A stretch of DNA of 64,000 bases from Candidatus Omnitrophota bacterium. GTDB taxonomy: Bacteria > Omnitrophota > Omnitrophia > Omnitrophales > Omnitrophaceae. The notes under the pieces are model-generated. The model was not told where the DNA came from, did not search any database, and worked only from the letters and a program-made list of their open reading frames with translations. Location: NCBI GenBank assembly GCA_029561555.1, contig JAKQXH010000058.1, positions 2,949 to 66,948 of the forward strand, written 5' to 3'. The translations under genes and the position numbers were made by a program. Below, piece after piece: positions 3,591 through 48,743 of the stretch (positions are counted from its first letter, which is position 1; each line of letters opens with the position of its first letter).

Positions 3591-5204
3591 TCATGACGGG
3601 ATCCTCTGCTGAATATAATGGCGCTTCTGCCACGCGATGCGGACCAGCGCGACCATCAGAAGGAGTATCCCCGCCAGGACGAATCTCGCGAACCAGATGT
3701 ACGGATAATTTTCGGGCCGGACCCCTTTCATCAGGAGAACATTCATCCCGTCCTGCCAAAACCACACCCCCATTAAAATGATCAGGTATGCCGGCGTGAC
3801 GTATTTGATAATGGGATAGAAAATGCGGGGGATCCTGATGTCGGCCCCGGTGCAGATTTCCTTCCAGGCGTTCCGGGATCCGAAAACCCAGATAAATAGG
3901 ATGACCTCCACCAGCGCGAAGACCACCAGCCCGAATGTCCCGATCCAGAAATCCATTTCGTCCAGAAACCCGTGTTTAAGGAAGAAAATCACCGGCTGCA
4001 TGAGGAAGAAAGCAAGCCCCCCGACCACGTACGCGGCCTGTTTCTTCGCCAGCTTGAATTCCTCCTGAAGGAACGACACCAGCGGTTGGGCCATGGAGAC
4101 CGAAGACGTGATCCCGGCCAGAAAGAGCAGGAAAAACCAGATCGCCCCGAAAAACTGTCCGAACGGCAGCTTCTGAAAAATGATGGGCATCGCGAAAAAA
4201 CCGAGATCAAACGCCCCTCCGCTTGCGATTTGGCGGGTCTGCTGAAGCCCGAAAAAGGCGACGGTGACGGGGATCGCGATCGAACCGCCGAGAATCACTT
4301 CGGCAAATTCGTTGGCGGAACTGGTGGCAAGGCCCGAAAGCACGACGTCGTCGCGTTTTGAAAGATAGCTCGCGTAAGTCTGAATCGCGCCGAACCCGAC
4401 GCTCAAGGTGAAAAAAATCTGGCCGGTCGCCGCGAGCCAGACCTTCGCGTTCCCCAAAGCCCGGAAGTCCGGATTCCAGATAAATCCCAGACCGTTCCAC
4501 ACATTCCGGTCCGGATACGCGGGATCCGGCGTTCCCAGCGTGAAAACCCGGATCAACAGGATAAAACCGAAAACGAAAATCATGGGAATCGCGACATTCG
4601 CCAGCCGCTCGATCCCCCGGGAAATGCCCCGGGAGAGGATCCAGACGTTCAGAATCATGGTGATCATGAAAAACAGATACGCCGTCCCGATCCCGTTGAA
4701 ATAGCCGTTCACGGCCTTGCCCTGGTACCCCGCGAGGAAATCCACCATCCCCTGATGATTCTGGATCCCGAAATACTTGCCCGTGATCGAAAAGATGCTG
4801 TAAGCAAGCGTCCAGGACTCGATGTAGGTGTAATAGACCACGAGGCCGAACGGGATGGCGATGCCGATCGCGCCGAGGTATTTCGCCGCCGGATGTCTCC
4901 ACAAATAATGGAACATGCCGGGAGTGGTGCCGTGTCCGTATTTCCCGCCGAAGCGCCCGATCCCCCACTCAATCCACATGAGGGGAATCCCCAGAAGAAC
5001 AAACGCGATAATGTAGGGGACCATGAACGCGCCGCCTCCGTTGCCGGCGCACTGCACCGGGAAACGGAGGAAATTCCCGAGACCGATGGCATTCCCCGCC
5101 ATGGCCAGGACCAGGCCGATCCGGGTCGCCCATCTTTCGCGGGCGAAGCTCCCGCCGGAGGGTTCCGGCGAAGGGTGGATTTTTTTATCCGATTTTTCCG
5201 TCAT
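3591..5204 (-). CDS. Sodium:neurotransmitter symporter (NSS/SNF, LeuT-like) transporter
   Basis: RERWATRIGLVLAMAGNAIGLGNFLRFPVQCAGNGGGAFMVPY is the hallmark NSS TM1 motif. 537 aa and polytopic. Confidence 0.9.
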   Translation of the reverse strand: MTEKSDKKIHPSPEPSGGSFARERWATRIGLVLAMAGNAIGLGNFLRFPVQCAGNGGGAFMVPYIIAFVLLGIPLMWIEWGIGRFGGKYGHGTTPGMFHYLWRHPAAKYLGAIGIAIPFGLVVYYTYIESWTLAYSIFSITGKYFGIQNHQGMVDFLAGYQGKAVNGYFNGIGTAYLFFMITMILNVWILSRGISRGIERLANVAIPMIFVFGFILLIRVFTLGTPDPAYPDRNVWNGLGFIWNPDFRALGNAKVWLAATGQIFFTLSVGFGAIQTYASYLSKRDDVVLSGLATSSANEFAEVILGGSIAIPVTVAFFGLQQTRQIASGGAFDLGFFAMPIIFQKLPFGQFFGAIWFFLLFLAGITSSVSMAQPLVSFLQEEFKLAKKQAAYVVGGLAFFLMQPVIFFLKHGFLDEMDFWIGTFGLVVFALVEVILFIWVFGSRNAWKEICTGADIRIPRIFYPIIKYVTPAYLIILMGVWFWQDGMNVLLMKGVRPENYPYIWFARFVLAGILLLMVALVRIAWQKRHYIQQRIPS

Positions 5205-5493: not shown

Positions 5494-5658
5494 ATGAGGA
5501 AGAAGAGAAAACTCGAACCCGAAAAAACAAAGCAAGATTCGTACCCGGCCGCGGCTCCGGGCGCAGCCTCGGGACAGGCCAAAGCCAAGCAGCATTCCTG
5601 GGTCGATGACGTCGATTGGTTCGGCGACAAGCCCGCGGTAGCGAAAAGTTCTTCCTGA
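5494..5658 (+). CDS. Hypothetical small charged protein (54 aa), unannotated
   Basis: Below the ORF-track cutoff. ATG preceded by TAGGAGAAAAATT (strong SD). Translation: MRKKRKLEPEKTKQDSYPAAAPGAASGQAKAKQHSWVDDVDWFGDKPAVAKSSS. No homology recognised. Confidence 0.25.
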   Translation: MRKKRKLEPEKTKQDSYPAAAPGAASGQAKAKQHSWVDDVDWFGDKPAVAKSSS

Positions 5659-5717
5659 TCAAACGGAACGTCCGGATTTCAGTCCGTCGCGAAGCGATTT
5701 CGGCAATCGGGCAAGGG

Positions 5718-6425
5718 CTAAAAAATAAGCCAGAGAAATTGCCGGAAGGGTACTTGCCTTTTCTCCAGCCACTTCAGCCAGTTCAGGTCTCCTTCTTTCG
5801 GGTAATTTTCGAAAAATACGGCGGGATCGTAGAATCTTTCCGTGACTTCCCCCGCGGTTTTGAGGGAAATCGTGTCGCTCGGGACGAAAGCCCTCCGGTG
5901 CAGCTGAAAATGAAGATGATCGTAATAGGCCCCGTATTTTTTGAGCTCCTGACGGTTGAACGTCCTGCCGATCAACGTCGAAACATCCACCCGCATCCCC
6001 CGCTTCACCCGGACGTCCGCGATATGAATATAGCTTGAGTAAACGATCTCCCCCGTCGGGAGAAGATGGGCGATCGTCACGCGGGTGCCGGCCCCCTGGA
6101 TTTTGACATCGTAGACTTTCCCCTTTGCCGCGGCATAGACCGGTTCGGCCGGTTTGGGAGTCCGGCCGCTTTGGAGATCGACGCCGGTGTGCAGATGGGC
6201 CGCCATGTGTTCATACGCCGCGCGATCGGCGAGAAACGCCCCTTTGTCCCGCGTCACGGAAGACTTCCAATCCGACCGATCCCCCGTTTCCAGGGGAAGA
6301 TCCCACACATAGGCCGCCGATGCCTTCACCCGGGAATCAATGACGCGGGGCAGAAGAAAGGAAATACCGGAAGCAAAAAAGACCGCGAGAACGACCGAAA
6401 CTTTCAGGCCCGGCAGAAATCGCAT
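5718..6425 (-). CDS. M23 family metallopeptidase (LytM-like), membrane-anchored
   Basis: HxxxD (HLHTGVD) and HLHFQL motifs. The start is trimmed to MRFLPGLKVSVVLAVFF (signal anchor), because the longer ORF overlaps nth more extensively. Confidence 0.75.
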   Translation of the reverse strand: MRFLPGLKVSVVLAVFFASGISFLLPRVIDSRVKASAAYVWDLPLETGDRSDWKSSVTRDKGAFLADRAAYEHMAAHLHTGVDLQSGRTPKPAEPVYAAAKGKVYDVKIQGAGTRVTIAHLLPTGEIVYSSYIHIADVRVKRGMRVDVSTLIGRTFNRQELKKYGAYYDHLHFQLHRRAFVPSDTISLKTAGEVTERFYDPAVFFENYPKEGDLNWLKWLEKRQVPFRQFLWLIF

Positions 6426-11624: not shown

Positions 11625-11660
11625 ACAACCAAAAGCTTTTTATTTTTCCAGTAACCTGTC

Positions 11661-11834
11661 CGGCAAATCTGACTGGAGCGAGCTCTCGCAACCGTTTGGA
11701 GCTTGGTCTGGCGCAAAGCGCCAGTCCAAACGGTGAGAGCGCAGACGGTCGGACGCCGCCGGAGCGGACGAACCGGCGGTCGCGGAAGCAGATTTGCCGA
11801 ACTTTATCGCTTGAAATCTCAAAAAACTTTTGAA
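11661..11834. repeat. Structured intergenic repeat, copy 1 (about 174 nt; 11-bp terminal inverted repeat CGGCAAATCTG/CAGATTTGCCG)
   Basis: Aligns without indels to 39401-39574 in the same orientation, with 13 substitutions. Contains nested complementary segments. Sits between convergent genes. Confidence 0.85.
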
Positions 11835-11907
11835 CGATGCCCTAGCATCCTTCGCCCGGAGGGTAGTGAAGGCAAGCATGTTTCTTCTCTGAAGGACTAA
11901 ATCGGCA

Positions 11908-37982: not shown

Positions 37983-38015
37983 TGGGGTCACACCTAAAAA
38001 TCAGGTGTGACCCCA
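37983..38015. promoter_or_regulatory. Perfect palindrome TGGGGTCACACCT-N7-AGGTGTGACCCCA in the divergent mutS/lnt control region (operator or REP-like unit)
   Basis: 13-bp arms and a 7-nt spacer. The left arm contains a candidate mutS -35 (GTGACC, 17 nt from TATAAT on the minus strand). The right arm ends 2 nt before the lnt extended -10. Confidence 0.45.
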
Positions 38016-39352: not shown

Positions 39353-39400
39353 GTAACAATGCATAAGTTTTTGTATGCCGAAAACGATGTTCGTCTTGTT

Positions 39401-39574
39401 CGGCAAATCTGACTGGAGCGAGCTCTCGCAACCGTTTGGAGCTTGGTCTGGCGTAAAACGTCAGTCCAAACGGTGAGAGCGCAGGCGGTCGGACGCCGCA
39501 GGAGTGGACGAACCGCCGATCGCGGAAGCAGATTTGCCGAACTTTATGGCCTGAAATTTTAAAAAACTCTTGAA
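39401..39574. repeat. Structured intergenic repeat, copy 2
   Basis: Same orientation as 11661-11834, with 13 substitutions and no indels. Lies between convergent lnt and the clpX-like gene, ending 8 nt from the clpX-like stop codon. Confidence 0.85.
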
Positions 39575-39581
39575 TAGTTAC

Positions 39582-41938: not shown

Positions 41939-43204
41939 TCAACCTCCTTCGTCTTCCTCAAGAATTATTTTTCCGATCGCCGACCCCAAAATCATGCAAC
42001 CCCGTTTATTGAAATGACACATCGGGTCCGCGTAAACCGGCCCTTTTTCCGGAACAAACAGTTTCGTCAAATCATGAAAGCGTATCCCTTTCGCGGAAAG
42101 ATCGCGCCCCGCGGACATCAAATACCGGTAACCTTTGATCACCGGGATCGAATACCGGCGATGCTCGTCATAACACTCCTTTTTTTCCTTTGCCGTCAGC
42201 ACTTTCGAGCCGGCGACATACTGATTCGGCTGCAGAAAGTGAAAATAGCGGATTCCGTTTTCCCTGCAAAGCTGATTCAGCAAAACGGAACTCCTCTCCC
42301 AAATCGCCGCAAGGTCCTCATACAAAGCCGATTCTTTTTCGTAATGCACCAGAGGACCGGTTTCCGCATAATTACTTTTTTGGGGCTTATAATCCAGCAC
42401 GGCCGAATTTTCATTATACAAAAAACGGTCGATCAGGGTATCGCCGGCCTTCCAGACAATATAAAACGCCGAGCTGTCCCGGAATGGAAATCTCGAAAAA
42501 AAAGCGGCCCACCGGCTCTTCATCCCCTTCAGAATCGTGATCTTGCCCACATGCCCCATCAATTCGGACGTGGATAACGTACCGACCCGCATATACCACA
42601 ACCGGGGATAGGCCGGAAAGACATTCTTGGGAATGTTCTCGACAAACGGCAGTGAAATCTCGTTGAATCCGTCGATATTGATCAGGACGTCAAATTCCGC
42701 CCCCAGCATCAATAGATAATTGACGATCATCAATTGCTGCGGTTGTTTATAGCCCCCCGCCGCCAGACGGATCATCACGATCTCTTTGCCCCGGAAGGAA
42801 GGCGCCCGGCGCAACTCCCCAAGCAGCGCCTCCTCACCCCAGTCGAAAACCTGCCCGGCGACGGAACCTCCCAGGATTCCCACGATGACCTTCTCCGGCG
42901 ATTTTTTCTGAATCGGGCTGACCGAATTTTGGAATCCGTAGGGATCCGCCGGAGTCGGCGGCGCCAGGACAAAACCGACATACGGATGCAAGGTGTCCGC
43001 CTTCATCCATTCCGGAATTAGGACCGAACCCGGGTAAAAACTGATGCGGTTCTCCGCGGCGATCCGCCGCGCATGATCCGCCTCGGCGAAAGAGAAAAAT
43101 CTCCCTCTCGCAAGGGAAAGCGCCGCGAAGGAAGCCCCTTCGATCGCCAGAAAGATCAGCAATAAAAGCAAGACGGGGAAAAGGATTCTTTTTGAAAAAT
43201 TCAT
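41939..43204 (-). CDS. Membrane-anchored hypothetical protein (about 421 aa)
   Basis: Trimmed to MNFSKRILFPVLLLLLIFLAIEG (N-terminal anchor). The large extracytoplasmic domain has a GILGGSVAG segment faintly reminiscent of SGNH/AlgJ-type proteins. Family not established. Confidence 0.55.
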   Translation of the reverse strand: MNFSKRILFPVLLLLLIFLAIEGASFAALSLARGRFFSFAEADHARRIAAENRISFYPGSVLIPEWMKADTLHPYVGFVLAPPTPADPYGFQNSVSPIQKKSPEKVIVGILGGSVAGQVFDWGEEALLGELRRAPSFRGKEIVMIRLAAGGYKQPQQLMIVNYLLMLGAEFDVLINIDGFNEISLPFVENIPKNVFPAYPRLWYMRVGTLSTSELMGHVGKITILKGMKSRWAAFFSRFPFRDSSAFYIVWKAGDTLIDRFLYNENSAVLDYKPQKSNYAETGPLVHYEKESALYEDLAAIWERSSVLLNQLCRENGIRYFHFLQPNQYVAGSKVLTAKEKKECYDEHRRYSIPVIKGYRYLMSAGRDLSAKGIRFHDLTKLFVPEKGPVYADPMCHFNKRGCMILGSAIGKIILEEDEGG

Positions 43205-43331
43205 GGCAGAATTATAAATCCATTGCCCCGGTAAGAAAAGCACTTATCCTATTTTCCCGCTTCCATCGTCCGGTAAAAACATGCTAGTCTTTAGCCGGAA
43301 TCTTTTTAAAATTCATTTCGGGCCATTCAAA

Positions 43332-44972
43332 ATGAGATTGCTTTTGTTTCAACCGCCGGTTCAGGATTTTTACGATACCGACATCCGTCTTCAGCCGATC
43401 GGACTTTGCTATCTCAAGGCCGCCGTCAAAAAGCACCTTCCCGACGTCGAAGTGATCGTGAAAGATTTCCATCAAGGACGGGGGCGCAGGACCATTTCTC
43501 TTCCCGGTGAATTAAAGTATCTTGAAGATTACTACATCGGCCCCGACAAAAGCCCTTTTTCCGCGTTCCATCACTATTATCATTTCGGCGCCTCCTTCGA
43601 AGCCGTCGCGGATGAAGTATCGGAAACAAAACCGGATTTAGTCGGAATCTCATCCCTCTTTTCGCCTTATTACCGCGAAGTCCTGCGCTGCGCGGAAGCC
43701 GTCAAGAAAAAACTGGCCGCTCCCATTCTGATCGGAGGTCCGCACGCCTCGGCCGCTCCGCTTCTCATGCTGGGAAACTCCTGCGTCGATTTCCTGATCC
43801 GGGGAGAAGGCGAAAGGCCTTTGGTCGAATTCCTGCGCGCCTGGACCGGAAACCGGGAATTCGCGGAAGTCCCCAATCTCGGTTTCAAAGAAAACGGAGT
43901 GCCGGTTCTGAATAAAATCGAGCCCAATTGCCCGATCGAAGAAATTCCCCGTCCGGACTTTTCGGATCTTGACCCGGGGAATTACTGTTTTGAAAAACAA
44001 CCCATGAGTTTCATCATCACCTCGAGAGGATGCCCGCATCATTGCAGTTTCTGTTCCGTGCATCTGACTTTCGGCGACCGCTACCGGAAAAGATCCGTCG
44101 AAGATATCGTCGCGGAAATCGAGGCCCGGGTCCGGGAAGGAATACGGGTTTTTGATTTTGAAGACGACAATCTGACTTTCTATATCTCCGAAATGAAAGC
44201 GCTCTGCAAAGAGCTGATCAAGAGATTCTCCGGGAAAGACATCCGCCTCCTGGCCATGAACGGAATTTCTTATCTGAGCCTCGATCCGGAACTTCTGGAA
44301 CTGATGAAGCGCGCCGGCTTTTCCCATCTGAACATTTCACTCGTCAGCACGGAAGAGGGCCTTCTCCGGTCAAACCGGCGGCCTTATTCCGCCGAAAAAT
44401 ACGTCGAAATCGTGCGGGGAGCCGCCCGGCTCGGATTTAAAACGGTTTCCTATCACATCCTCGGGTTCCCCGGAGCCTCTTTGGAATCCATGACCGAAAC
44501 GTTGATCCGGATGGCACAACTTCCGGTCCTGATCGGATCCTCCCCGTTCTATCTCACGCCCCATTCCCCCATCGCGGAGAAATTTCCTCCGCCGGACGAG
44601 GAAGATATCTTCAAATCAAGATTGACCGCCATGGCTATTGAATCGGAACATTTCAAGCGGGAAGACATTTACACATTATTCGTCACCGCCCGAATCCTCA
44701 ATTTCCTTAAGGGGATTCAACTGAACGGAGAAAGCGGCACGCTTCGGGATGTTTTTGAAATACTTGAGAATTCGGATAAACGACAGGCTCTCGGAGGGGA
44801 ACTTCTCGCGAGACTTCTGTCGGAAAGAAAACTTTATGCCGTCATCCGAAACGAACGCCGCCTTTTACCGAAATTCAAAGCGGATCTTTTCTTTAGGATC
44901 TGGGATAAACTCGATTTTATCGCAACTCAAAACAATCAAAAGATATATGGGGTCACACCCCTTTTTGCTTAA
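43332..44972 (+). CDS. B12-binding domain-containing radical SAM protein
   Basis: N-terminal cobalamin-binding-like region (MRLLLFQPP...PIGLCYLKA) and the radical SAM motif ITSRGCPHHCSFCSV. The last 8 codons are formed by a GGGGTCACACCCC repeat arm. Confidence 0.85.
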   Translation: MRLLLFQPPVQDFYDTDIRLQPIGLCYLKAAVKKHLPDVEVIVKDFHQGRGRRTISLPGELKYLEDYYIGPDKSPFSAFHHYYHFGASFEAVADEVSETKPDLVGISSLFSPYYREVLRCAEAVKKKLAAPILIGGPHASAAPLLMLGNSCVDFLIRGEGERPLVEFLRAWTGNREFAEVPNLGFKENGVPVLNKIEPNCPIEEIPRPDFSDLDPGNYCFEKQPMSFIITSRGCPHHCSFCSVHLTFGDRYRKRSVEDIVAEIEARVREGIRVFDFEDDNLTFYISEMKALCKELIKRFSGKDIRLLAMNGISYLSLDPELLELMKRAGFSHLNISLVSTEEGLLRSNRRPYSAEKYVEIVRGAARLGFKTVSYHILGFPGASLESMTETLIRMAQLPVLIGSSPFYLTPHSPIAEKFPPPDEEDIFKSRLTAMAIESEHFKREDIYTLFVTARILNFLKGIQLNGESGTLRDVFEILENSDKRQALGGELLARLLSERKLYAVIRNERRLLPKFKADLFFRIWDKLDFIATQNNQKIYGVTPLFA

Positions 44973-44980
44973 AAGTGTAA

Positions 44981-45022
44981 AGACTACAGACCACAGACTG
45001 CAGACTGAAGACCAAAGACAAA
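44981..45022. repeat. Six tandem heptads AGACNNN
   Basis: AGACTAC AGACCAC AGACTGC AGACTGA AGACCAA AGACAAA, with an exact 7-nt period. Confidence 0.8.
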
Positions 45023-45026
45023 AAAG

Positions 45027-45046
45027 CTAGTAGGGACTAGTAGGGA
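45027..45046. repeat. Perfect 10-nt tandem duplication CTAGTAGGGA x2
   Basis: Read directly from the sequence: CTAGTAGGGACTAGTAGGGA. Confidence 0.85.
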
Positions 45047-45068
45047 AAAGGGGCGTGACCCCTGATTT

Positions 45069-45304: not shown

Positions 45305-46252
45305 TTAACCGCTTTTGGCCACTTTCGCGATGAAGAACCCTTCCATCTCGCGGTCCGGAAAAATTCTGACGGCATTTTTCACGGAAGGATGAAAAGCCTT
45401 CCCTTCCCACTCCGAAAGACCGGGAGTCCTGTTCGGAACCGGAAACTCAATTTCACAAATTTCCGCCCGTCCGGCCAGCTTCCGGACCGCCCAATCCAGG
45501 ACCGCTTCGTTTTCCTCCGGCGCAAACGTGCAAGTCGAATAGACAAGGCTTCCTCCGGGCTTCAGCGCCGAAAGCCCCGAGAGAAGAAGTTTCTTCTGCT
45601 TCCGGGACATTTCCCTGATTTTGGCGGGTTTCCAGAATTTCCAGGACGCCTCATCTCCCGCCCGGAAACGCCCTTCCGAACTGCACTGCGCGTCCACCAG
45701 GACTTTATCGAATCGATCCGGAAATTGTTTCCCGAAACACTCCCCCGGTTTGCATGAAAATTCGACATTCTCCGCCCCTTGAAGTTCGACCGTATTCTTC
45801 AGTTTGAAGAACCGTCCCCGGTTATTGTCGTTGGCGGCCAAATGCCCCGTCCCTTTCATCATGCAGGCAATCTGAGTGGTTTTGCTCCCCGGCGCCGCCG
45901 CAAGATCCAGAACGTTGTCGCCCGGTGAAGGAGAAAGCGCCAGAACGGGAATCAGGCTGGAAAGGCTCTGGACGTAAAGCTCTCCTTCGCGATAGGCCCT
46001 CGTCTCCTGAAGGGCCCTCAAATCCTTCCGCGGAAGGATATAAACTTCGGGACACCAGGAAACTTTTTGGGTCGAAAGTCCCGCCCGTGAAAGTTCCGGA
46101 ATCAATGCCTCGGCGGACGTCTTCAAAGTGTTGACTCGGAACGAAACCGGCCTTGCGAATGAAAACGTTTCGATCAACCCGCCGGCATCCGCCTCCGGAA
46201 AGATTTTCCCAAGCCGTTCGATAAAAAGCGGAGGCAATTTCCCGGTCAGCAT
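45305..46252 (-). CDS. RsmB/RsmF (NOL1/NOP2/Sun) family RNA cytosine-C5 methyltransferase
   Basis: [26 protein letters not shown] and [14 protein letters not shown], which contain the two catalytic Cys motifs. Confidence 0.85.
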
Positions 46253-47817: not shown

Positions 47818-47895
47818 GGATCCTTGTCCCGGAAACGGGCACCCTCTCCGGATCAGGACCGAATACGGCTCTTCCCGGAAAAACGATCGATAAAA

Positions 47896-47919
47896 ATCCC
47901 CGGATTTTCATCCGGGGAT
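47896..47919. terminator. Bidirectional rho-independent terminator
   Basis: ATCCCCGGA-ttttca-TCCGGGGAT (9-bp stem), flanked by AAAAA upstream and TTTTATTT downstream. Lies directly after the mscS stop (minus strand) and downstream of the peptide gene (plus strand). Confidence 0.7.
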
Positions 47920-47921
47920 TT

Positions 47922-48743
47922 TTATTTGGAAAGTATTTTGACTTCCCGCTGAGGAAAGGGAATGTTCAATCCGGCCGCTTTGACCGCCCGGTAAACGGCG
48001 AGGCTGACGACGTGAGAAATCTGGAAGTATTTCCGGGTCGGAACCCAGTAGCGGAATTCGATGTTCACCGAAGAATCCCCGAAAGCCTGTATCCCGATTT
48101 GAGGAGGGGGTTGATCCGTCACCTCTTTAAAACCGGCCAGGACCTGCTGAATCACGCGAACCGCTTTCTCCGGATCGTCCCCGTAGCTGATCCCGATCAC
48201 GGACTCCACAACCTTGTTCGGTCCCGAATTCTGAATAATTTCCCCGACGATATGCTTGTTCGGGATCGTGATCTTCACGTTATCTTCGGTCACCAGGGTC
48301 GTCGACGCAAGCTTCACCTGGTCCACGACCCCGCTCACGCCGGTGACCGTGACGGTGTCCCCGATCACAAAAGGCCGGCCGAGAATGATCGCGATCCCCG
48401 CCCCGTAATTCGACAAGGGCCCCTGAATGGCGTACGTCGCGCCGAAGATCATCGCGCCGAGGGCCGCGATAAAAGGCGCGATGGTGATCCCGAATTTCCC
48501 CAAAGCGATGATCACCGCAAACCCGACGATCACGAGCTTGACAAGGCCGGCAAGAAATCCCGAGAACGTTACGTCCAGCTTCTTTTTCTCGAACAAAGCC
48601 AGAAGAAGCGCCGCCGTCCATTTGGCGATCATCCAGCCGAGGAAGAGGACAATGAGGGCCCCGACAACCTGGAAACTGTAGTTAACGGAAAATTCGATCA
48701 GGGTGTTGACCAGCTTCTGGATGGCCGAAATCTCGTTTCCCAT
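47922..48743 (-). CDS. mscS: Small-conductance mechanosensitive channel (MscS family)
   Basis: Three N-terminal TM segments and the conserved beta domain (RPFVIGDTVTVTGVSGVVDQVKLASTTLVTEDN). Confidence 0.88.
   Translation of the reverse strand: MGNEISAIQKLVNTLIEFSVNYSFQVVGALIVLFLGWMIAKWTAALLLALFEKKKLDVTFSGFLAGLVKLVIVGFAVIIALGKFGITIAPFIAALGAMIFGATYAIQGPLSNYGAGIAIILGRPFVIGDTVTVTGVSGVVDQVKLASTTLVTEDNVKITIPNKHIVGEIIQNSGPNKVVESVIGISYGDDPEKAVRVIQQVLAGFKEVTDQPPPQIGIQAFGDSSVNIEFRYWVPTRKYFQISHVVSLAVYRAVKAAGLNIPFPQREVKILSK

Follow-up and report, generated by a model that had tools for sequence, protein, structure and literature searches.

A probable REP-type doublet of the GGGGWSAS-tagged repeat family, with an unusually repetitive spacer, between convergent genes of an Omnitrophota bacterium

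Where two convergent genes meet in a 64-kb window of DNA from a Candidatus Omnitrophota bacterium (the window being the whole stretch analysed, 64,000 nucleotides (nt) of contig JAKQXH010000058.1, assembly GCA_029561555.1), a pair of inverted arms encloses six AGAC heptads and a duplicated decamer, and the locus raises the question of whether this 114-nt feature is a device peculiar to the site or a copy of something more widely dispersed. The evidence assembled below favours the second answer: with a probability of roughly 0.78, the feature is an inverted doublet of repetitive extragenic palindromic (REP) type, either a non-autonomous element resembling a REPIN (a hairpin-forming doublet of REPs) or the remnant of one. 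It belongs to a repeat family tagged by the motif GGGGWSAS, and is therein of a known kind, the oddly repetitive spacer being the unusual part. Because the same repeat occurs in many bacterial phyla, the feature can be regarded as an ordinary selfish repeat lodged between two genes. What an earlier note on this DNA, prepared from the letters alone, chiefly missed is that a widespread REP-type repeat supplied both arms, a second doublet of that repeat lying only 7 kb away.

Each of the sequence features described in that note, from the inverted arms, heptads and decamer duplication to the convergent genes and the coding role of the left arm, was found exactly where it had been placed, and the arrangement is non-random. 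The component parts of the element are as follows.

44949–44965, plus strand: left REP-type arm, GGGGTCACACCCCTTTT, itself a small palindrome (GGGGT-CAC-ACCCC), which codes for GVTPLF in the tail of a radical SAM protein
44966–45045, no strand assigned: spacer of 80 nt, A-rich on the plus strand, with a sequence unique to the window copy
44981–45022, plus strand: six in-phase heptads of AGAC plus three further nucleotides (TAC, CAC, TGC, TGA, CAA and AAA)
45027–45046, plus strand: exact tandem duplication of CTAGTAGGGA (two copies), as reported by a repeat finder
45046–45062, minus strand: right REP-type arm, read as GGGGTCACGCCCCTTTT on the minus strand and as AAAAGGGGCGTGACCCC on the plus strand

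The right arm is an inverted copy of the left with one A/G difference, and only 6 nt separate its end from the stop codon of the small gene that converges on it. The arms are complementary at 16 of 17 positions, and the repeat finder lengthened them to 25 nt, 84% complementary, across an intervening 80 nt. Their core 11-mer is GGGGTCACACC, and the head GGGGTCAC is present in all four arms of the window, those of the second doublet included; the flanks of the element read ...ATATAT to the left and TGATTT... to the right. The window is identical to contig DAORGS010000006.1 of the Candidatus Omnitrophota metagenome-assembled genome (MAG) GCA_035356955.1 and to a Joint Genome Institute (JGI) metagenome contig; over the element the window, L001 and L002 are identical, and therefore there was no strain variation to exploit.

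The evidence that identifies the arms as dispersed repeats begins within the window itself, with the second doublet.

37984–38014, no strand assigned: GGGGTCACACCT-aaaaatc-AGGTGTGACCCC, a compact perfect palindrome in the intergenic region of the divergent mutS and lnt genes

This palindrome sits inside the 105-nt divergent promoter region, has the 15-mer ATATGGGGTCACACC in common with the left arm, and folds with a predicted energy of -27.5 kcal/mol (z = -6.7). It is absent from the closest database relative (L004), in which the gap between the two genes is occupied by an unrelated insert of about 350 nt (5640–6040).

Beyond the window, a scan of 185,579 reference genomes with the arm-pair pattern GGGGTCACRCC-N70-100-GGYGTGACCCC returned 37 loci, against a chance expectation that we estimate at ~0.01. 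These loci cover at least seven phyla, several often coming from one genome, and comprise Thermoanaerobaculia and other Acidobacteriota, Omnitrophota, Elusimicrobiota, Desulfobacterota, Planctomycetota, Victivallales and Massilia/Pseudoduganella (Burkholderiales); GCA_035356955.1 is not among the matches. The same pattern was present in at least 120 metagenome contigs. Throughout, the 11-mer core is invariant and is followed by lineage-specific extensions of 10–20 nt, the spacer sequence varies freely, and the copies take the form of inverted doublets or of irregular clusters of up to 14, placed mostly just past the 3' ends of genes and often between convergent ones. Many family members in other phyla are flanked by AAAAA/TTTTT.

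Some further properties of the family were recorded in passing. Dense arrays of 6–14 copies, biased to one orientation and irregularly spaced at 12–45 nt, occur in L029 (4571–4679), L022 (4241–4547 and 6057–6432) and L031 (4757–4965 and 7373–7494); they are superficially reminiscent of clustered regularly interspaced short palindromic repeats (CRISPRs), lack regular spacers, and in some cases adjoin transposase genes of the type described below. The metagenome contigs L046–L165 (prefixes JAAUXU, JAAUXV, JAAUYB and JAAUYJ) carry, in great abundance, doublets of a family ~96 nt long in which the interior is conserved, the left flank purine-rich and the right flank pyrimidine-rich (for example ...GGAGGGAGG, element, CCCCCTCC...); this large metagenomic family contains the same palindromic unit as the arms, GGGGTCACACCCC. 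Searches of Rfam at gathering thresholds assigned no family to the window or to 17 related loci save for an unrelated group I intron, and permissive E-values yielded only noise over the element. The intron (RF00028, 51.5 bits; L039, 4748–5023) lies on an Omnitrophota contig some 2 kb from a GGGGTCACACC doublet, with which it probably has no connection. Literature matches to the literal 11-mers were confined to unrelated primer sequences.

The genes that keep company with the repeat supply the second line of evidence. Among 148 open reading frames (ORFs) neighbouring the repeat the commonest Pfam family was Y1_Tnp (IS200-like), represented by six ORFs that form one homologous cluster; a more sensitive profile search recovered homologues in nine loci, a weak partial match in L033 included, and tblastn added a partial match in L025. 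On the NCBIfam model NF047646, 'REP-associated tyrosine transposase' (RAYT), the Y1_Tnp proteins scored 74–83 bits (cut-off 80), and their database relatives carry the label RayT in both NCBI and JGI records. In Acidobacteriota the repeat stands in plus orientation to one side of the RAYT genes and in minus orientation to the other, and repeat-flanked RAYT genes were seen at seven loci (L009, L010, L016, L022, L031, L034 and L289). All three RAYT homologues picked independently of the motif proved likewise to be flanked by repeats of the type GGGGTCA-NN-CC-TTCG, one with the exact 11-mer, one with GGGGTCAGGCC and one with decayed copies. The disposition of repeats around these transposase genes is that of a REP/RAYT arrangement. 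Paralogous RAYT genes in L041 (2336–3931) and L288 (1140–1340 and 2670–2750) are accompanied by the head variants GGGGTCAGAGC and GGGGTCAGGCC instead of GGGGTCACACC, which suggests that the transposase and positions 8–9 of the repeat co-vary.

A published precedent exists for repeats of this description. Di Nocera et al. (2013, BMC Genomics 14:522; PMC3733652) described 'TIRtrons', in which RAYT-like 'TIRYT' genes are flanked by inverted repeats that share the motif GGGGWSAS and occur as dimers or clusters, the best-defined transposase group being that of the Acidobacteria. The head GGGGTCAC fits this motif, as do the variants GGGGTCAG beside the RAYT genes of L041 and L288; single copies, dimers and clusters are found in both cases, HUH/Y1 genes are bracketed in both, and the acidobacterial group is again the sharpest among the present loci. 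The differences are that the published repeats were drawn from cultured genomes and had moderate copy numbers, whereas here the head recurs in uncultured Omnitrophota, in Elusimicrobiota and in other phyla; that the present window contains no transposase gene; and that the spacer of the present copy consists of tandem repeats. Dimers are present in the genome of the window, and the flanking of transposase genes was seen in Acidobacteriota loci only.

The resemblance to the REPINs and RAYTs of Pseudomonas and E. coli (Bertels and Rainey 2011, PMC3116915; PMC3337134) is similarly close in organisation. A REPIN consists of two inverted REPs plus a spacer of variable length and sequence, and the A/T runs that flank some copies hint at co-option for attenuation (PMC3337134). 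The window element and its relatives have in common with REPINs the inverted imperfect palindromes, each unit being a short one in itself, the variable spacers of tens of nucleotides of which no two are the same, the extragenic position, the overall length of ~90–120 nt, the A/T runs beside some copies, the association, seen in other genomes, with a usually single-copy Y1 gene flanked by repeats, and the lack of target-site duplication. Unlike REPINs, the window element has no GTAG tetranucleotide; since its head is GGGGTCAC, it falls outside the GTAG class and fits the separately described GGGGWSAS class. The RAYT proteins of the related loci also differ, having ~320 residues with an extra C-terminal region as opposed to ~160.

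How the element came to occupy its present site is best approached through the two genes it touches.

43332–44972, plus strand: B12-binding radical SAM gene, 546 residues from the ATG at 43332, product identical to database protein P0001, Pfam PF02310 and PF04055
45069–45299, minus strand: zinc-ribbon gene of 76 residues (CxxC...CxxC) with a C-terminal GLLGKLLKWLKG helix, convergent with the radical SAM gene

The radical SAM gene truly begins with the ATG at 43332, unlike a longer ORF of 563 residues, and its last eight codons (YGVTPLFA) and stop codon (44970–44972) lie in and just after the left arm. An RsmF-like methyltransferase gene comes next after the zinc-ribbon gene. In the closest database relative, the radical SAM protein of which is 76% identical, the locus contains neither the repeat nor the zinc-ribbon gene, and the stop codons of the radical SAM and RsmF-like genes are only 2 nt apart. 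DNA homology between the window and this relative stops near 44944 and returns near 45315; the two proteins part company after ...TQNNQ(K/R)I, the window continuing with YGVTPLFA and the relative with ILSSGVKP, and other homologues differ again. This comparison of radical SAM 3' ends, which the earlier note had called for, supports its suspicion that an element was inserted into the 3' end of the gene or recruited by it: the arms belong to a dispersed family, and the relative that lacks the repeat has a different tail. Two more distant homologues (P0003 and P0011) showed no conserved synteny and therefore say nothing about the locus.

We propose that the repeat was dispersed by an HUH/Y1 transposase working on hairpins of single-stranded DNA, and that one copy settled where the radical SAM and zinc-ribbon genes converge. 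There it would have taken the place of the end of the radical SAM frame, so that the YGVTPLFA tail and its stop codon would be repeat-encoded. Repeat-encoded C-terminal tails were noted in other genomes also (...GVTPFHES, ...GVTPMALS and ...GWGSHLHY, each ending at a stop codon). For annotation, this would mean that the radical SAM protein ends in eight residues foreign to the enzyme family, and that tails of the forms ...GVTP..., ...GSHL... and ...GHT... on other proteins from MAGs are likewise repeat-encoded. The possibility that the zinc-ribbon ORF is itself part of the element was considered and rejected because it belongs to a conserved family of small proteins (70 cluster representatives at E ≤ 1e-3, most of them full-length at 76–100 residues) that is also found in other gene neighbourhoods. 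Upstream of the radical SAM gene, an ORF of 410–434 residues on the minus strand (41939–43243) has no Pfam match, and the 76%-identical relative lacks it at the syntenic locus.

The spacer calls for an account of its own. The three-unit pattern AGACNNNAGACNNNAGAC has four overlapping matches in the window against 0.07 expected, and AGACNNNAGAC has five matches in the array and one other in the 64 kb, a chance pair at 4097. The AGAC heptad array is absent from the rest of the window and from the other 170 of the 171 doublets compared; among these 171, the spacer of the window copy is the second most periodic, the sole one above it being a tandem array of the repeat core. Tandem 7-mers that contain AGAC are nonetheless frequent as generic repeats in viral contigs, most of them perfect, and since such repeats are generic elsewhere the heptads are most likely an old and decayed slippage array with a 7-nt unit. 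A direct repeat of spacing 21 (D1) reported within the heptads gives some sign of a duplicated 21-nt unit, which may have contributed. The duplication of CTAGTAGGGA would be a recent slippage-type event. Replication slippage may thus have lengthened the spacer after insertion, a 7-nt unit having been amplified and then allowed to decay, and a 10-nt unit having been duplicated recently. That the units abut directly, at 7 and 10 nt, confirmed the earlier exclusion of a CRISPR array, in which repeats of 23–50 nt alternate with unique spacers. Homology between this spacer and the interior of the 96-nt metagenomic family, which also contains AGACTAC-like strings, was tried and rejected: nhmmer aligned the arms only (E ~0.04).

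Several observations weigh against the interpretation of the element as a REPIN-like doublet and its spacer as decayed slippage, and they are collected here. Profile and tblastn searches recovered no RAYT gene from the 64-kb window or from any of the Omnitrophota loci, so that in Omnitrophota the link to the transposase is by analogy; a database search seeded with a Victivallales RAYT returned no Omnitrophota-labelled proteins. Only two doublets, that is four arms, were seen in the window, both of them intergenic or at a gene end. The relative that lacks the repeat also lacks the zinc-ribbon gene, and because ~370 nt differ at the locus, that gene included, the comparison does not demonstrate a clean insertion of the 114-nt element alone. 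In a further departure from REPINs the 80-nt spacer does not extend the hairpin, being no better structured by itself than its shuffled counterparts (z = +0.6 on the plus strand and -0.9 on the minus strand). Finally, the ~8 substitutions inferred within the heptads all fall in the three variable positions and none in AGAC (p ~0.001, or 0.008 when all seven phases are allowed for), a pattern that purely neutral decay does not predict. This last result is suggestive, yet a single locus is insufficient for claiming a function.

Among the rival explanations, the one that survives best, while still very unlikely, is that the feature is a locally evolved bidirectional intrinsic terminator, its GGGG-N5-CCCC hairpins and T-runs having arisen in place and not as copies of a mobile repeat. 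The folding data bear on this directly. A 141-nt region that includes the element folds far better than shuffled sequences on both strands (z = -4.7 and -5.1), with the arms paired in the minimum-free-energy structures of both, and since the spacer alone is unstructured this stability comes entirely from the arms; per nucleotide the window element is less stable than 88% of the 170 other doublets. Folded singly, the arms give weak hairpins (GGGGT-CAC-ACCCC, -7.4 kcal/mol; GGGGUC-ACG-CCCC, -8.7 kcal/mol), and the CTAG...CTAG of the decamer duplication can pair as a further hairpin of 4–6 bp. The earlier note had proposed a GGGG-N5-CCCC hairpin followed by a T-run at each arm; a terminator-like scan called the left arm (a 5-bp stem, a 3-nt loop and five Ts, positioned before the stop codon), and made no call for the right arm, which on the minus strand runs into TTTTCCC. 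A terminator would also suit a site where genes converge, and the AAAAA/TTTTT flanks of copies in other phyla agree with one. What such an origin leaves unexplained is the identity of sequence: the identical 11-mer forms a palindrome 7 kb away in a divergent promoter region, which has no use for a terminator, and the same 11-mer recurs across phyla and brackets RAYT genes.

Terminator activity is compatible with a REPIN-like doublet as a secondary effect. In RNA, the arms would either pair as one long stem or fold separately into two small hairpins with U-runs at the 3' ends of both convergent transcripts, and for this reason they probably have the incidental effect of terminating weakly in both directions or of stabilising 3' ends; that they serve as weak convergent terminators, or as a bidirectional 3'-end structure, is plausible by comparison with the REPs of E. 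coli, which are known as 3'-end terminator or stabiliser structures. The REPs and bacterial interspersed mosaic elements of that species lie after or overlapping stop codons between convergent genes, with potentially stable 3' stem-loops on both transcripts, as does the present element, the difference being that here the hairpin starts within coding sequence, eight codons ahead of the stop.

A shade less probable again is the proposal, also contained in the earlier note, that the spacer is the functional part: an AGAC/GGA binding array, whether iteron-like, an RNA sponge or a small RNA derived from the 3' untranslated region (3'UTR) that titrates a protein such as CsrA, with the arms serving merely as insulation. 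The invariance of AGAC in all six units, with variation confined to the 3-nt spacers, is what such an array would lead one to expect, and one GGA falls in the loop of the predicted CUAG...CUAG hairpin. The array is nevertheless unique both in the window and among the 171 doublets, its period of 7 nt does not keep phase with the DNA helix, and tandem 7-mers with AGAC are generic. As iterons the units are too short (7 nt as compared with ~17–22 bp), no replication or partition gene is nearby, the neighbours being the radical SAM, zinc-ribbon and RsmF-like genes, and the array is absent from the relative; as a CsrA sponge it offers just two GGA units, only one of them in a loop, in an otherwise unstructured spacer that matches no Rfam family, and the window encodes no CsrA homologue. 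No form of the proposal gained support.

Still lower in our estimation, and distinctly improbable, stands a conventional miniature inverted-repeat transposable element (MITE), that is, a deletion derivative of an insertion sequence with a DDE transposase, the terminal inverted repeats of which would start with GGGGTCAC (for instance the GGGG terminus of Tn3-like elements). Terminal inverted repeats, a length of ~100 nt and the many near-identical 96-nt copies in some metagenomes are all features that a MITE would display. Target-site duplications, by way of contrast, were not evident in the 163 doublets inspected (none in 149, and only 1–2 nt in the other 14), and the only transposase enriched among the neighbours is of the HUH/Y1 type. 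BLAST searches of plasmid and phage collections with the consensus palindrome gave nothing meaningful, and only two viral contigs contain the arm pair. Because Massilia-type palindromes extend outward past the GGGG motif, that motif is not the terminus. It may be added that no RAYT gene was found on the contigs (L046–L165) that carry the abundant 96-nt family, most of which are short.

The least probable alternative treats the GGGGTCACACC palindromes as operator half-sites of a transcription factor, with one regulatory site in the promoter region of mutS/lnt and another where the radical SAM gene ends. In its favour, a perfect inverted repeat of 13 bp, interrupted by 7 nt, lies between the divergently transcribed mutS and lnt. 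It is opposed by the half-sites of the other site being 92 nt apart at gene 3' ends, by the relative that lacks the mutS/lnt palindrome, and by the occurrence of the motif in unrelated phyla and gene contexts, in clusters of up to 14 copies and at the flanks of transposase genes. Operators resembling matS or CRP sites, integron attC sites and Tn3-type MITEs were also considered, and set aside on grounds of motif, spacing or target duplication.

GGGGWSAS repeats, first recognised in a few cultured genomes, prove to be frequent among uncultured lineages, Omnitrophota, Elusimicrobiota and Thermoanaerobaculia included, where they can be used as a marker of RAYT-type activity and can also break assemblies and extend ORFs falsely. 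Two more adventurous readings, which taken together we consider unlikely, would go further. According to the first, the GGGGTCACACC head might mark one very widely spread REPIN/RAYT-like system across at least seven phyla, mostly in uncultured bacteria, with the recognition head nearly invariant and the stems and spacers evolving by lineage; were this true, it would sit uneasily with the view of REPIN-RAYT pairs as lineage-bound and vertically inherited. According to the second, the spacer might have been exapted, the heptads, with their invariant cores and 3-nt linkers that all differ, forming an array to which a multimeric protein that binds single-stranded nucleic acid would attach in the 3'UTR of the radical SAM or zinc-ribbon transcript. 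The heptad spacer is otherwise a curiosity, and matters only if it is bound by protein.

Two other repeats in the window were recorded in the course of the analysis. A second and unrelated repeat family is represented at 11655–11835 and 39395–39575 (plus strand) by copies of ~180 nt that are ~94% identical, with 14-nt inverted termini (GTYCGGCAAATCTG...CAGATTTGCCGAAC), a predicted fold of -81.7 kcal/mol (z = -7.6), and an internal hairpin in which the copies differ by a compensatory change (GGCGC/GCGCC as compared with GGCGT/ACGTC). No Rfam match to this family was obtained even at E ≤ 1, and it could be another REPIN-like or MITE-like element, or a structured RNA. At 47890–47925 a perfect 16-nt palindrome with a 4-nt gap (ATAAAAATCCCCGGAT / ATCCGGGGATTTTTAT) has flanking A/T-runs like those of a bidirectional terminator.

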